A DNA stretch of 64,000 nt. Source: Candidatus Poribacteria bacterium. Lineage in GTDB: Bacteria; Poribacteria; WGA-4E; WGA-3G. The stretch is taken from the NCBI GenBank assembly GCA_965197475.1, contig CBDANF010000003.1, forward strand, positions 3,296,001 through 3,360,000. Reading direction: 5' to 3'. Shown in pieces: positions 19,062 through 24,242 of the stretch (position 1 is the stretch's first letter; every line of letters starts with the position of its first letter). The notes beneath the pieces were generated by a model. It was not told the DNA's origin and ran no database searches. It saw nothing but the letters and a program-made list of their open reading frames with translations. Position numbers and translations under genes: made by a program.

Positions 19062-20037
19062 ATGTATAGCGTTCTACCCGGAATTAGTCTGCCTGAAGAT
19101 ACAGCCTTTCTATGGAAATATATGAGTCTTGAGAAATTTGTTAGTCTTTTAGGGACAAAAAGTTTATTCTTTACAAGAGCCGATAAGTTGGACGATCCTT
19201 TTGAAGGCTTTACGCCTCCGTCAGTAAAGTCGTTTTACCATGACACAGTCGCTGATATTAATACCTTAGAGAAGTTCCAAGAAAATTGGCCTAAGTATAC
19301 TTTGTGTAGCTGCTGGCATCATGCAGAGGAAGAATCCATGGCGATGTGGGAAAAATATCACATGCATAATAGTGGTATTGCCATCAAAACGACCTTCGGT
19401 GATTTTAAAGACTGCTTGAGCGAAGGTTATGAGGTATTTCTCGGCAAAATAGAATATATTAATCACTATGAATACCCGGTCCCACAAAATTTATCAGAAA
19501 TGAGTATGTTATATACTTGGTATTTCCACAAGAGAAAAACGTTTGAATACGAACAAGAATTCCGCGCTATTATAGCAAACCCTCAAACATTTTTTATGAA
19601 ATATATTGATAAGGATGGTAACTTTATCAGTTCAGAAACTATGCCAGAAATCATTTTAACAGGACTTACGCATTTTCTCTTAAAGTCCCCTTGATAAGGG
19701 GGACTTAGGGGGTTAAAAACACGGAAATAACGATTTTGAACTGCGGGATGGGCGCATAAGTGGTAGCATCCTTGATGGCATCTGCTTATTTAACCCCCCT
19801 AACCCCCCTTATCAAGGGGGAATGCGTAAGTCCTGTTTAAATAAAGAATTCCGAGATACTTGTAAAACTGGCATGTCTTTTAATGTTGATGTCAGGACAT
19901 TGATTGGTGAAGTCATCACATCACCATATAGTGACGACTGGGTTACAGAGACGGTCAGATCGGTTGTTAAACAATACGGATTTGATTTTGAGGTTAACGC
20001 CTCAACTTTATTAGATGAACCAATTGAAACAGTTTAG
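19062..20037 (+). pseudogene. DUF2971-like protein interrupted by a MITE
   Basis: LWKYMSLEKF, LFFTRADKLDDPFEG, SCWH...ESMAMWEKY, GIAIKT, KRKTFEYEQEFR. Removing 19660-19840 joins both halves in frame (...EIILNKEFRDTCKTG...EVITSPY), giving 264 aa. Confidence 0.85.
19660..19835. mobile_element. MITE family A (176 bp)
   Basis: TIR CAGGACTTACGCA/TGCGTAAGTCCTG; 5-bp target duplication TTTAA (19655-19659, 19836-19840). Confidence 0.92.
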
Positions 20038-20044
20038 TTTGTAA

Positions 20045-20132
20045 TACCCAATTAACGGGATTTGTAGCGCGAGGTCCCCGTGTCTCACAATCCTGACTTT
20101 ATCGGAAAACTTCTAATCAAGTTAATTTGGTA
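20045..20132. repeat. MITE-like family D copy
   Basis: TACCCAATTAACGGGATTTGTAGCGCGAGGTCCCCGTG...ATCAAGTTAATTTGGTA, near-identical to 18533-18621. Confidence 0.85.
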
Positions 20133-20158
20133 TTAGTCATTCGGGAGATATTATTCTA

Positions 20159-20291
20159 ACGTGAGTTTGGTAAAAACGAGACTTCGTGCTTCTCGTAGGG
20201 GCGAGCTCCCCTCGACCGTAGGGGTTAGGCAACCTAACCCCTACGAAAATGTCCGCATATTTTTAGAATTTGCCATATATCAAACTCACGT
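20159..20291. mobile_element. MITE family F carrying GTAGGGG-type REP hairpins
   Basis: TIR ACGTGAGTTTG/CAAACTCACGT, flanked by direct repeat TATTCTA (20152-20158, 20292-20298). Confidence 0.8.
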
Positions 20292-20466
20292 TATTCTATA
20301 TCAAATCAACGCCCAATGCGCGTTTAGCATGAGTCGCCTCTCCCAAGGCGAGACCTTGAGGTTAGAAGTTTCTCACCAGTCTTTTCCCATTTACGTAATG
20401 TGGCAGGCGTTGAACCAATGAGTTCTGCAGCCTCACCAATCTTTACTAATCTGTTTTCCATCGTTT

Positions 20467-20608
20467 GTAGGTGCGGTTAGATGAAGATAAAAAATAATTC
20501 GGTAATTTTCTTGCAATGCTCGGTGCGGTTAGGAAACCGCACCTACCGGTAATGGAGAAAATTAGAATTACCGAATTAATAAATTAATCTTCATGAAACC
20601 GCATCTAC
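20467..20608. repeat. REP-like palindrome interrupted by a 114-bp family E element (20481-20594)
   Basis: GTAGGTGCGGTTAG | ATGAAGAT...ATCTTCAT | GAAACCGCATCTAC. Confidence 0.8.
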
Positions 20609-20724
20609 TGTTTTGCGTTATTTATAGTTTGTATCAAATGACCCCATGAGTTATACTATTAGTATTCGTTAAACTAACGAGTAGATGTCCTCGGATCCCC
20701 GATAATCTATTCATGGAGGTCAAT

Positions 20725-21525
20725 ATGAACCGCAAGAAGGATACCGCTTACGGTATCACTCGGCTCGAATCCAAGAATGCCAGAGCCGCGATTATTCAGA
20801 AGATTTCAGCAGACTTTAATCTAATGCCTCTCGTTGCTGAAGCCTACTATAAACAGATTTCCACCTACTTTGAACAACACGCCGATGTGCACCTGACATC
20901 AGGGCAAATCTGCTACGAGGCAGTCGCCGCAGAGGAACCCGCAGGTAAACATATCGCTTTAGCGAAAAAAGTTTCCTGTCGGCTAACTCTCAATGACACA
21001 AACGCCGATCTTGAAGTCTTAGCGAATTATGGTCTCGCAGGACTCAGACGGCATCGGATCCTCCGATTGACCCAAGAAGCTTATGACCAAGATGCCTTAC
21101 TGAGCTACGAGGATTTAGCTGTATTATTAACCACCAGTCCTGCTACAGTCAAACGCGACATTCGACACTTGAAGCAGGATGGGTATTTCGTTATGACGCG
21201 CGGGACGAAACACGACATGGGCCCCGGCACTTCTCATAAAACCCAGGTCCTGGAGTTATATTTCAAAGCCTATACCTTCACCGAAATCGAGAAAAAGACG
21301 AACCACAGCGAACGAGCTGTCTACCGCTACTTGAAAGACTTTACACAAGTCGCTACGCTCCATCATCAAGGCTTTCCTAACGCACAGATACGCCTGATCA
21401 CCCATCTATCTGACCGGTTGATCCGCGAGTATCTCTCACTCTATGAGGAATACCAACACACAGATCGCATAACCCAACTCCTTCACCCAGAACCTGAGGA
21501 CACAAAAAAGGGGGACCTCTCATGA
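20725..21525 (+). CDS. DUF1670-like HTH protein A
   Basis: GGAGG RBS, ATG 20725. RILRLTQEAYDQDALLSYEDLAVLLTTSPATVKRDI...TRG..HDMGPGTSHK...HSERAVYRY. Confidence 0.8.
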   Translation: MNRKKDTAYGITRLESKNARAAIIQKISADFNLMPLVAEAYYKQISTYFEQHADVHLTSGQICYEAVAAEEPAGKHIALAKKVSCRLTLNDTNADLEVLANYGLAGLRRHRILRLTQEAYDQDALLSYEDLAVLLTTSPATVKRDIRHLKQDGYFVMTRGTKHDMGPGTSHKTQVLELYFKAYTFTEIEKKTNHSERAVYRYLKDFTQVATLHHQGFPNAQIRLITHLSDRLIREYLSLYEEYQHTDRITQLLHPEPEDTKKGDLS

Positions 21526-22406
21526 GCAAACCTCTAACCCGCACGCAAATCAACGAGAAGAAATTCAGACGCATCAACGATAAGTCCCTACGACAGTTGC
21601 TCATTCACCGCTTTCTCAATGACTATGGTTATGACAAAGGCGAAGTCACTGCCACCGCCATTGTTGATGATATTCTTAAGACCGTTGAAGACTATTTCGT
21701 GATTACCCTTCCTTTGGAGAAACTCGCCACCGGCGATCAACTCCCGGATGAGCGTTTCTTGAGTTATGGACAACTCGTTTGGATGGCCGTCCCTATTGAA
21801 GAGCATCCAGAAAGAGGAAAGTCCATCGTCAAAACCCGCATGAAACCCGTCATCCTGACTTACCTCGCCGCAGAGGATATTGAATCCTTTCGCAACGGTT
21901 TCACCTCCCGGCAATTGCGGATCAATCGCTTGGTCCGCTGGTGTCATCAAGCTTATGACCAAGGGGCATTATTGACACAACTCGACTTGGCAGTTTTGCT
22001 CAATGTCTGCGATGCCGTTGTCTGTGATTATGTTAATGAATGGCAAAAAACCACTGGAGAACTCTTGCCCACCCGTGGCAATATCCATGACTTATCGGGG
22101 GCTATTACCCATAAGAAAGAGATCATAACCCTCTATCTTCAAGGACATCTCACCCCCAGGATTGCCGCAAAGACCAAACACTCTAAGGAGGCAGTTGACC
22201 GATACATTCGCGATTATGAGAGCGTCAAAGTCGTTCGGAAAGCAACCGCAGATATTGATAAAATCTCACAGATTACACGACTTTCTAAACGCGTCATCTC
22301 TCAATATCTCGACCTCATACCGCAGCACCAACTCCAAGCCATAGATGCAGACCTTGCCAATTCAGACTCAAACGATGAAGCCACTCACCAAGGAGAAGCC
22401 CAATGA
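21522..22406 (+). CDS. DUF1670-like HTH protein B (paralog of A)
   Basis: ATGA overlap with A. RLVRWCHQAYDQGALLTQLDLAVLL...PTRGNIHDLSGAITHK...HSKEAVDRY. Confidence 0.8.
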   Translation: MSKPLTRTQINEKKFRRINDKSLRQLLIHRFLNDYGYDKGEVTATAIVDDILKTVEDYFVITLPLEKLATGDQLPDERFLSYGQLVWMAVPIEEHPERGKSIVKTRMKPVILTYLAAEDIESFRNGFTSRQLRINRLVRWCHQAYDQGALLTQLDLAVLLNVCDAVVCDYVNEWQKTTGELLPTRGNIHDLSGAITHKKEIITLYLQGHLTPRIAAKTKHSKEAVDRYIRDYESVKVVRKATADIDKISQITRLSKRVISQYLDLIPQHQLQAIDADLANSDSNDEATHQGEAQ

Positions 22407-22473
22407 GACCCTAATCCTATGTTCCCGACGAACTTTACTTCGCAAAACCGGGGCAGGTGCCTTGAAAATATGG

Positions 22474-22502
22474 TTGACAACCGCTACTGGTTTTGCTATA
22501 CT
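22474..22502 (+). promoter_or_regulatory. Near-consensus sigma70 promoter in the right end of the DUF1670 element
   Basis: TTGACA (22474-22479)-17 bp-TATACT (22497-22502), with TGn extended -10. Confidence 0.7.
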
Positions 22503-22508
22503 TTAGAC

Positions 22509-22634
22509 ACGTTTATCGCTAAACGCATCATTTCTCAAAGAGGATGCTCGCGATCCCAACGCAACCCACTCATCAACGATCGCTGGGAAGCCAATAAACA
22601 TCAGCCTTCCAGCTATCCTATGGTCATTTGATAC
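22509..22634 (+). ncRNA. Candidate structured ncRNA (~125 nt)
   Basis: Directly downstream of the promoter; four consecutive hairpins; no credible ORF or RBS. Confidence 0.4.
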
Positions 22635-22882
22635 TATTTCAGAATCAACATTTTGCGCGTAGCCGTGTAATCCCCAGCTTTGAGCATATAGAAATAAACA
22701 CCACTCGCCACGCGTTCACCGATTTCGTTTCTGCCATTCCAATGGATAGCACGGGCACGGCTCCGATACATACCCGCAGGCTGATGCCCTAACGTTATCT
22801 CCCGCACCACGATGCCACGCATATTGAAAATCGTCAGCGACACCTTCGCAGGTTTTGCAAGCTGATAAGGTATCCACGTTTC
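22634..22882 (-). pseudogene. Orphan remnant of a FlgD/T9SS-like C-terminal domain
   Basis: ETWIPYQLAKPAKVSLTIFNMRG...VASGVYFY...TRKMLILK*, preceded in frame by TAG, with no start or RBS. Confidence 0.8.
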
Positions 22883-22901
22883 CTACCGCTATTGTTAGAA
22901 A

Positions 22902-24242
22902 TTATTCTTGCACTTTCAAATCTGCCCAACTTGTAGTCCGTTTACCTTTCGCAGACACAAGACCTTTTAATCGAACAGTTGCTAACCGTTCCTGTTCCCC
23001 AGCATGCGACACATCTTCTATCCGATAATAGTAGAAGGTATTCGGTTTAGCGGTGGTATCTGTCCACGTGTATTCATTGCGTTCACCTGTAGTGCCAGCA
23101 CCTTGAATGAGTTCGGTGTTGACAACTTTGAATTCACCGTCCTTTGTTGGACTGCGGTAGATGTAAAAACCCGCGTTATCTACCTCCGACTCCGTTGTCC
23201 ATTTGAGGATAATGCCTGCATCGGTGTGTTCGGCACTGAAATGGGATAGGGTAACTGGCAATGCTTCCCTGCGACTTTTAAGATAGATTTTTATACCCGG
23301 ATTCTGTTCCAATAGCGCGAGGAGCGGTTTTCGGTTCTTAATCGGATTGTCGTAAACGTATAATGTTTTGAGATTTGTGAGTTCTGTGAGGGGACTCACA
23401 TCACTAATTTGGTTGCCATAAAGCCTTAAACTCGTGAGATTTGTCAACGCAGCGAGTGGGCTAATGTCCGTGATTTGATTGTTAGCAAGATCTAAACTTG
23501 TCAGATTTGTCAACGCAGCGAGTGGGCTAATGTCCGTGTCCGTGAGTTGATTTTTAGAAAGACCTAATCCTGTCAGATTTGTCAACGCAGTGAGTGTGCT
23601 AATGTCCGTGAGTTGGTTGCCATCAAGCCATAAACCTGTCAGATTTGTCAACTCAGTGAGAGGATTTATGTCTGCGATTTGATTATGACGAAGCAATAAA
23701 CTTGTCAGATTTGTCAACTCGGCGAGCGGACTGATGTCCGTGATTTGATTAGTGCTAAGGTATAATGTTGTTAATTTTGTTAGCCCTGATAGTGGTGTGA
23801 GATCACTCACGTTATTGCCTCCCATTTGTATATACTCCAGATTTATCAATTCTGCCAAGGGTTTGATGTCCATGATTTCATTAGAAGCCATCTGTAAGTA
23901 TGTTAATTTTGTTAGCCCTGATAGTGGCGTTATATCGCTAACTTCCGTACGATGGATGTCAAGTCTTGTCAAATTAATTGCGTATTCAAGCCCTATAATG
24001 TTTTTTTCTCTGTCAGCACCGGGCTTAAGGACAACGATGTCAAGTTCCGTTAACCTTTCCATATCCTGTTTTGTGATTATGCAATTAGATGGCTTATTAA
24101 ATACTTTACAAAGTCTCGCTTTTAAAGTTGGGTCCGGTATTGAAATCTCTTGGGCTGCCGTTTCTGACACAAAACCGTTTGGTACAAACGCAAGTGTTAC
24201 AAAGATGAGGAGTGTCAATGTGAAATAGCGTTTCGTTTTCAT
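22902..24242 (-). CDS. Secreted internalin-like LRR protein with C-terminal Ig/FN3-like domain
   Basis: AAGGAG RBS; signal peptide; 22-aa repeats NQITDISPLAALTNLTSLxL; LPVTLSHF...WTTESEVDNAGF; tail KGKRTTSWADLK. Confidence 0.9.
   Translation of the reverse strand: MKTKRYFTLTLLIFVTLAFVPNGFVSETAAQEISIPDPTLKARLCKVFNKPSNCIITKQDMERLTELDIVVLKPGADREKNIIGLEYAINLTRLDIHRTEVSDITPLSGLTKLTYLQMASNEIMDIKPLAELINLEYIQMGGNNVSDLTPLSGLTKLTTLYLSTNQITDISPLAELTNLTSLLLRHNQIADINPLTELTNLTGLWLDGNQLTDISTLTALTNLTGLGLSKNQLTDTDISPLAALTNLTSLDLANNQITDISPLAALTNLTSLRLYGNQISDVSPLTELTNLKTLYVYDNPIKNRKPLLALLEQNPGIKIYLKSRREALPVTLSHFSAEHTDAGIILKWTTESEVDNAGFYIYRSPTKDGEFKVVNTELIQGAGTTGERNEYTWTDTTAKPNTFYYYRIEDVSHAGEQERLATVRLKGLVSAKGKRTTSWADLKVQE

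Follow-up and report, generated by a model that had tools for sequence, protein, structure and literature searches.

A Conserved Outward Promoter-like Sequence and Putative End Signals in the Right End of a DUF1670 Insertion-Sequence-like Element from Candidatus Poribacteria

Organization of the DUF1670 Element

The window analyzed in this study, a 64,000-nucleotide (nt) stretch of contig CBDANF010000003.1 from a sponge-associated Candidatus Poribacteria bacterium, harbors an insertion sequence (IS)-like element of 2,014 bp (20624-22637, plus strand) that begins with ATAG and ends with CTAT, its ends being the points at which the flanks of its copies diverge. The element encodes two DUF1670 proteins, A and B, and carries in its right end (22442-22634) a predicted sigma-70-type promoter directed outward, an imperfect palindrome and a terminal inverted repeat. 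With moderate confidence, this right end is interpreted as an outward or junction promoter combined with DNA-level end signals of the element.

In the genome from which the window derives, a search yielded 19 near-full copies and one 430-bp deletion derivative, showing 90-100% identity. These copies share the same ends and lie in different flanks, as expected for an insertion sequence. In junction alignments, homology begins with ATAGTTTGTATCAAATGACC directly after ...A[C/T]TT and stops with GGTCATTTGATACTAT, which is followed by TT; these copies and junctions place 22442-22634 subterminally in the DUF1670 element, at its right end, as the initial annotation of this DNA had stated. Terminal inverted repeats and a target-site duplication, likewise hallmarks of insertion sequences, are both present. 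The left repeat GTATCAAATGACC (20631..20643, plus strand) is a perfect 13-nt inverted match to the right repeat GGTCATTTGATAC (22622..22634, plus strand), and across phyla the repeat reads GTATCA[AT][AT]TGACC. A 2-bp duplication, TT, is seen at 20622..20623, as deduced from the left flanks in the own genome, and at 22638..22639, as deduced from the junction alignments. TT/TT was found in all 63 element rows counted; moreover, CG/CG occurs at two Eisenbacteria-type loci in which the last host codon is Arg (L153 and L155), and L154 is mismatched (CG versus CT). Beyond the terminal repeat, the motifs common to both ends are limited to 9-mers with one mismatch and one 12-nt direct repeat (22413-22424 versus 22614-22625), the latter not being kept in relatives. 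It was also considered whether these terminal repeats delimit a larger master element; this was rejected, since all 38 exact terminal-repeat matches in the own genome are paired approximately 2 kb apart or lie inside the 430-bp derivative. Two own-genome copies on contigs 2 and 3 (L015 and L016) have an identical 60-nt left flank and different right flanks, a pattern that points to recombination among the copies or to a chimeric assembly.

The genes orfA (20713..21525) and orfB (21522..22406), both on the plus strand, are the only conserved open reading frames (ORFs) inside the element. They encode proteins of 270 aa (A; PF07900, E 4e-62, with additional weak matches to helix-turn-helix (HTH) families) and 294 aa (B; PF07900, E 1.2e-61), which are paralogous and share 35% identity. 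In the Pfam scan, A and B matched DUF1670 and HTH families only, and no DEDD transposase family was listed. The AlphaFold2 model of B (predicted local distance difference test score 85) is helical with a single small beta hairpin. Comparison of this model with the PDB by means of Foldseek returned no match at E <= 0.001, the weak rows representing HTH regulators, paired domains and the Tc3 DNA-binding domain, and a sequence search for solved homologs returned one weak row (E 1.4e-5) and nothing else. The invariant R/H/K/H/Y residues of B were also considered as the signature of a tyrosine recombinase. This reading was rejected, as the residues fall in Pfam-matched HTH motifs and the model is devoid of an alpha/beta catalytic domain. 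Relatives of B comprise 1,017 protein clusters (50% identity) at E <= 0.001. Fused forms of the A/B type also exist, namely single proteins of approximately 520 aa and of 930-950 aa with two or three DUF1670 stretches (P0133, P0135, P0141, P0143, P0183, P0239 and P0261).

A Conserved Predicted Outward Promoter in the Right End

The predicted promoter TTGACA-17-TGCTATACT (22474..22502, plus strand) consists of a -35 box TTGACA (22474-22479), a 17-nt spacer and a -10 box TATACT (22497-22502) preceded by TG. Featuring 11 of 12 consensus positions and a TG-extended -10, it has the hexamers and spacing of a sigma-70-type promoter, in agreement with the initial annotation. It is the best of four promoter-like sites in 20400-22900, a count to be seen against a mean of 3.8 sites in shuffles at the tool's lower threshold.

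To describe its conservation, right ends were gathered from relatives in the order, from miniature inverted-repeat transposable elements (MITEs), solo ends and named Poribacteria records. The strict pattern, defined as TTG[AG]NA-(16-18)-TGnTATACT, is present in 60 of 62 complete Poribacterial elements and a loose version in all 62; the promoter mostly lies 134-136 nt away from the element end. Furthermore, the -10 columns are invariant in an alignment of 34 right ends with a mean identity of 63% (alignment A4), and the promoter is the most conserved feature of the right end besides the terminal repeat. Within a set of 37 right ends chosen for a -10-like motif, which was found in 58 of 101 unique 190-nt right ends, at least four of six positions match at -35 in 33 ends, TGn is present in 35 and TATACT in 35. 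The distance from the -10 box to the element end in these motif-selected sequences amounts to 134-139 nt in 27 cases, to 102-106 nt in seven (one subfamily) and to 81, 122 and 132 nt in three.

The promoter had been described as lacking a same-strand gene downstream, and this holds: what follows is a convergent gene (ORF 22634-22843 on the minus strand). The description of the stretch as non-coding can also be maintained. An ORF of 70 aa (22419-22631, plus strand) overlaps it, but matches no Pfam or NCBIfam family and is poorly kept, an ORF of at least 60 aa being present at this position in 3 of 62 related elements. That the right end encodes this 70-aa protein can hardly be expected: the frame is open in the window, but it starts upstream of the promoter, which therefore lies inside the ORF, and one-base indels occur among homologs.

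An operator-like inverted pair around the -35 box, GCAAAACCGG (22442-22451) and CTGGTTTTGC (22487-22496, both plus strand), was likewise found as annotated, with 8 nt matching exactly and 9 of 10 positions plus one G-T over the full arms. It is kept with mismatches in subfamilies of at least 83% identity, and in more distant ones the A-run and T-run alone are seen. At the left end, a weak promoter-like sequence, TTGTAT-17-TATACT, can be read from the sequence and is absent from the list of the promoter scan. In a Gemmatimonadota relative, an outward TTGAAA-17-TATATT (L150:3285-3313) is located just 39 nt from the right end, a distance more in keeping with an outward promoter than with a structured RNA of 125 nt. 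Alongside this site, it was noted that the window element carries CCTTGAAAA upstream of its -35 box.

Probable DNA-Level End Signals

Downstream of the promoter, an ACTCAT motif (22567..22572, plus strand) has its inverted counterpart at 20646-20651, where ATGAGT adjoins the left terminal repeat; its C, T and A are invariant or nearly so in alignment A4. The motif is followed by an imperfect palindrome, GAT.GCTGG.AAG / CTTCCAGC.ATC, enclosing a conserved A-rich loop CCAATAAACATCAG (22578..22617, either strand), which was recognized in single-sequence folds and in MITEs and contains the last (H4, 22582-22613) of four consecutive stems (H1, 22510-22525; H2, 22525-22547; H3, 22550-22583) proposed in the initial annotation. 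H4 was predicted in 13 of 13 single-sequence folds, and across 66 non-redundant right ends its folding is more stable than that of shuffles, to a similar degree on both strands (median z -1.88 for plus and -1.23 for minus). Approximately 80-84% of its cells are paired in alignments, with no excess over column shuffles, and none of its double changes are in excess. Depending on the register, G-U and A-C cells occur at 12:25 or 34:24, indicating no strand preference.

In MITEs and solo ends, H4 and the terminal repeat persist, but the promoter is often missing. Of the right end, MITEs in genome G023 retain only 78-113 nt, with no intact promoter, and solo ends retain as little as the last 27-35 nt or so. 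The MITE-like derivatives measure 330-460 bp and the solo right ends approximately 27-180 nt, and they are still attached to the ends of sorting-domain genes, the element's main target described below; examples are L046-L048 (G023), L066 (G040) and L020 (own genome). In G023, such derivatives are present though no full element was found.

Alternatively, H4 could act on the opposite strand as a hairpin in the 3' untranslated region of the host gene, approximately 20 nt past its stop codon, where it would stabilize or end the host mRNA and shield orfB and orfA from antisense read-in. This function would be compatible with the promoter and end-signal interpretation, but is considered unlikely. 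The host stop codon does lie in the element terminus, the palindrome is kept in solo ends attached to sorting-domain genes, and by absolute energy the minus-strand fold is the more stable one in 55 of 66 non-redundant right ends. However, this apparent advantage disappears against strand-specific shuffles (median z -1.23 for the minus strand versus -1.88 for the plus strand) and represents an effect of base composition; a strand assignment of H4 on this basis was rejected. Moreover, no U-tract follows, a scan of 22578-22640 returned no terminator-like site on either strand, and the palindrome is absent from elements in other phyla.

Insertion at the Last Codon of Sorting-Domain Genes

For 17 of 20 own-genome copies (window included) and, as counted by regular expression, for 58 of 72 unique right flanks overall, the sequence to the right of the element is a sorting-domain gene's 3' end in reverse-complement orientation, in one and the same register. 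In the window, the target encodes a C-terminal type A sorting domain (FlgD_ig-like) of the type IX secretion system (22634..22843, minus strand; PF13860, E 1.2e-7; TIGR04183, 23.5 bits at a cut-off of 23). An uninterrupted paralog scores 28.3 bits against the same cut-off and ends with ...RKMVILK; correspondingly, the window ORF ends with ...KMLILK and its stop codon occupies 22634-22636. The element terminus CTAT (22634..22637), read on the minus strand as A + TAG, finishes the last host codon and provides the stop. Left flanks in the own genome end with a reverse-complemented stop codon (TTA, CTA or TCA) followed by CTT or TTT, which means that the original last Lys codon and stop of the host gene stay on the left side. 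Judged from these junctions, insertion takes place behind the second base of the last sense codon, and the element restores this codon as well as the stop; since the third base and TAG are supplied by the terminus, the encoded host protein is predicted to be unchanged.

The same target and register were found in records of Gemmatimonadota, Zixibacteria, Eisenbacteria, Ignavibacteria and Bacteroidetes, whose B proteins are 59-66% identical and whose elements retain the terminal repeat. Sorting-domain targets in these distant phyla are represented by loci L150, L153-L155 and L158-L160. Each of the seven flanks tested stays open up to the junction, and its match to TIGR04183 reaches profile position 70-71 of 72; four score above the cut-off. 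In the distant elements, the non-coding DNA at the right end measures 69-200 nt, is not alignable by eye and shares no recognizable block of promoter and H1-H4 with the window. A further subfamily, 73-80% identical, sits not at a gene end but at a fixed spot in the loop of a palindromic repeat, GAAACCGAGTTTT / AAAACTCGGTTTC (L026, L041-L043 in G035, L028 in G026, and L143).

Upstream of the target in the window, a host leucine-rich repeat (LRR) gene (22902-24242, minus strand) is cut off from the sorting-domain ORF (22634-22843) by stops in three frames (22844-22901). At the corresponding gap between LRR and sorting domain, a paralog reads ...NFPNPFNPETWIPY. The host LRR gene in the window is either decayed or affected by assembly errors.

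Relation of the Right End to the Target

The initial annotation had proposed the right end as a possible source of a guide or regulatory RNA analogous to those of IS110/IS1111 elements, with loops pairing with the target and the element ends. A non-coding end with its own promoter, highly specific insertion, two proteins devoid of a recognized catalytic domain and the precedent outlined in PMC11187229 and PMC11208160 speak in favor of such an RNA. Nevertheless, it is rated as very improbable. The two complementarities on which it was based are present in the sequence, and neither of them carries the proposed meaning. The heptamer TTGCGTT, complementary to AACGCAA in the large loop of H3, is located in left-flank DNA that no other copy shares, so that this match is due to chance; ACTCAT, complementary to ATGAGT, is present at both ends, one copy being inverted relative to the other, which means that the complementarity reflects end symmetry.

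A broader comparison did not reveal any relation between loops and insertion sites. The longest exact matches of the non-coding ends to flanks or targets measure 5-8 nt, in a test that would not register shorter split or wobble matches, and the only two matches with p < 0.05 (0.015 and 0.035) both involve the left flank unique to the window copy. Nor does the non-coding end change with the target, a change that would be expected of a guide. The same target, in the same register, is hit by relatives whose right ends are unrelated and shorter, and near-identical H4 loops occur at different targets (L143 in a palindromic repeat, L066 as a MITE at the end of a sorting-domain gene). On the evidence of these sequences, target choice does not depend on the right-end stretch. 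Furthermore, the 2-bp duplication, the terminal inverted repeats, the missing DEDD match in A or B and a four-hairpin fold that is not conserved (see below) set the element apart from IS110/IS1111. Of the initial proposal, the promoter-driven non-coding end is retained and the IS110-like guide is not supported.

A guide sequence could also originate from outside the element. If the right-end RNA ran over the terminus into the flank, the DUF1670 proteins might use its flank-derived 3' part, which would be antisense to a sorting-domain gene end or would represent a palindromic repeat, to find paralogous targets. We regard this idea as a long shot. If true, it would explain a target class that perpetuates itself across phyla, abrupt switches (G035, G026) and the missing guide inside the element, and it would represent RNA-guided transposition based on HTH proteins without a known nuclease or recombinase fold.

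Folding of the Right End

All four stems of the initial annotation pair in the window as described there. However, they are neither formable all at once, nor do they correspond to the minimum-energy fold, nor are they conserved as a set of four. G22525 belongs to H1 as well as to H2, and GC at 22582-22583 to H3 as well as to H4; four full stems therefore cannot coexist. The minimum-energy fold instead consists of H4 and one long 5' hairpin (22509..22561, plus strand), which includes H2 and, in the window subfamily, unites H1, H2 and the 5' arm of H3. The stretch of 130-132 nt folds at -27.8 kcal/mol with z values of -2.1 to -2.3, eight and four of 200 shuffles being as stable.

Alignment of homologous right ends did not disclose a common structure, as the RNAalifold consensus amounts to just -0.42 and -0.12 kcal/mol on 21 and 34 diverged right ends. 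In the 34-sequence alignment, 72.6% of cells are paired for H1 and 78.5% for H2, both with a few compensatory changes, and 58.3% for H3, and pairing of H1-H3 reaches 68.1% versus 64.3% in shuffles. The subfamily L112-L124 is devoid of H1-H3; its promoter is followed by a different hairpin. An Rfam scan of 19500-23500 at E <= 1 returned no match. For the case that structure was not conserved or loops were unrelated to targets, the initial annotation had itself named an outward or circle-junction promoter, and both findings point to that reading.

Metatranscriptome Contigs Covering the Element

Four metatranscriptome runs were considered in the form of assembled contigs, which convey neither strand, starts, ends nor level and may contain carried-over DNA. 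RNA contigs cover the whole element, with similar depth over both ORFs and the right end and an approximately 10-fold drop in the flank. In three of the four runs, contigs extend from 22481/22484 to 22632/22639 and stop where copies differ. Over the right end, contig depth (72-439 per bin) does not exceed the depth over the ORFs, and in these data a transcript of the host gene would also cross the right end.

A separate MITE-like palindromic repeat with many genomic copies (20467-20610) is located directly left of the element; its summed RNA-contig depth is 2,100-2,900 (bin 20488-20581), approximately 10 times that of the element. Further upstream, at approximately 19690-19820, an inverted repeat of G/C runs, CCCCTTGATAAGGGGGACTTAGGGGGTT ... 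AACCCCCCTAACCCCCCTTATCAAGGGGG, flanks about 60 nt between two small ORFs.

Proposed Function of the Right End

According to the interpretation given above, the predicted sigma-70 promoter would fire outward, in the direction of orfA and orfB, across the last 135 nt or so of the element, and ACTCAT, the H4 palindrome and the terminal repeat would serve as cis-acting DNA signals, most likely bound by the element's HTH proteins. In an integrated element, transcription would leave the element and enter the convergent host gene in antisense direction. If the element were circular or arranged head to tail, the promoter would read over the joined ends into orfA, approximately 230 nt downstream, which would raise the expression of A and B in the transposition intermediate only, an effect known from the junction promoters of other IS families. 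The outward promoter may also oppose host transcription entering the element.

Several observations weigh against this interpretation. No joint of the 'goes back' type, as expected from a circle junction, was found in the four RNA contig sets, and a pattern search for abutted ends in 151 genomes returned a single case, in which a right-end remnant of approximately 20 nt lies beside a left end. Two of three distant elements scanned (L154 and L155) have no sigma-70-like outward promoter at the scan threshold. Classical junction promoters split their -35 and -10 boxes between the terminal repeats, whereas the window promoter is complete and positioned approximately 135 nt inside; its near-fixed distance from the terminus suggests that the transcript or the architecture of the end is constrained. 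Of 13 diverged transcripts, nine fold better than shuffles at z <= -1.87, H1-H3 show 29 double-change cells versus 16.7 in shuffles (0/500; kinship inflates these counts), and pair 61-69 of H1 is UA in 17, GC in four and CG in one sequence, representing compensatory changes. Concerning abutted ends, a short right-end remnant directly beside the left end of a full element, with a TT spacer, is represented by L161 (G065) and L128; this arrangement would be the product expected of a second insertion into the same TT.

The structural signals and the nearly constant promoter-to-end distance would be accounted for if the promoter made a discrete non-coding RNA of approximately 100-135 nt, comprising the 5' hairpin, H4 and the terminal repeat, with a regulatory or scaffolding role in transposition and none in target choice. 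Such an RNA might bind A and B or pair with transcripts carrying the complementary left terminal repeat. This possibility is kept as a tentative, rather improbable alternative. A strong conserved promoter without an ORF behind it, the hairpin found right after the promoter even in the subfamily lacking H1-H3, and the RNA-library contigs over 22481-22639 are consistent with it. On the other hand, there is no consensus fold, H3 being the least paired of the three 5' stems; the pairing of H4 is explained by column conservation and shows no strand bias; neither a terminator nor an Rfam family was detected in the scans mentioned; the contig depth does not exceed that of the ORFs; and MITEs move or persist without the promoter. 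Persistence of such derivatives with H4 and the terminal repeat is in line with the favored combination of a promoter and DNA-level end signals.

Whether or not the promoter gives rise to a functional RNA would decide if targets in this new transposon family are recognized by protein alone or with the help of RNA. It also bears on the question of whether insertions alter the expression of secreted proteins in sponge symbionts.

Comparison with Known Systems

A full-text literature search on DUF1670 and PF07900 returned no paper, and one on insertion-sequence transposases of Poribacteria returned nothing relevant; the DUF1670 element seems to be undescribed. Outward or junction promoters are known from IS911, IS30 and IS10 (pOUT). 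The window promoter resembles them in being located in the element end and pointing outward, so that a circular or tandem form would read the transposase genes. It differs in being a complete promoter at a conserved distance, with no hybrid of -35 and -10 boxes across the terminal repeats. A further example of a junction promoter is Pjunc of ISEc11, which is cited in PMC11187229.

As described in PMC11187229, IS110/IS1111 elements possess a DEDD enzyme, insert without duplication and encode RNA segments complementary to both target strands, and each IS or close group selects a different site (also PMC11208160). Measured against these accounts, the DUF1670 element is similar in its long non-coding region downstream of the genes (as in IS1111), in its site-specific insertion and in having palindromic repeats as one target class. 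In contrast, it features terminal inverted repeats and a 2-bp duplication, uses the same target across phyla and has no DEDD match.

Right-end RNAs (omega or re RNAs) are also known from IS200/IS605 TnpB and IscB elements. An RNA of the DUF1670 element would similarly begin inside the right end and cross the terminus into the flank, whereas the element has no TnpB/RuvC protein or HUH transposase and possesses terminal inverted repeats and a duplication. Elements of the IS630/Tc1-mariner group are characterized by a 2-bp duplication (TA), short terminal inverted repeats and one transposase with a bipartite HTH DNA-binding region and a DDE domain. The 2-bp duplication, short inverted repeats and bipartite HTH architecture of the DUF1670 element correspond to this scheme, the sole result obtained here in this direction being the weak Tc3 fold row. 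Differences are that no DDE domain was found in A or B, that TT or CG is duplicated instead of TA, and that two paralogous HTH proteins are encoded.

Insertion into palindromic repeats is known for IS1397. The G035/G026 subfamily (76-80%) likewise occupies a palindromic repeat, always at one position of its loop, and thereby also resembles ISPpu9, which inserts in repetitive extragenic palindromic sequences (PMC12288879). Unlike ISPpu9, the DUF1670 element relies on another protein family, and its main target is the end of a coding sequence. Considered by itself, the right-end stretch most likely combines an IS-end promoter with binding signals and thereby represents a known kind of feature. 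The element as a whole is unusual, being widespread, lacking a recognizable catalytic domain and inserting at the last codon of its target in at least five named phyla in a manner predicted to leave the host protein unchanged.

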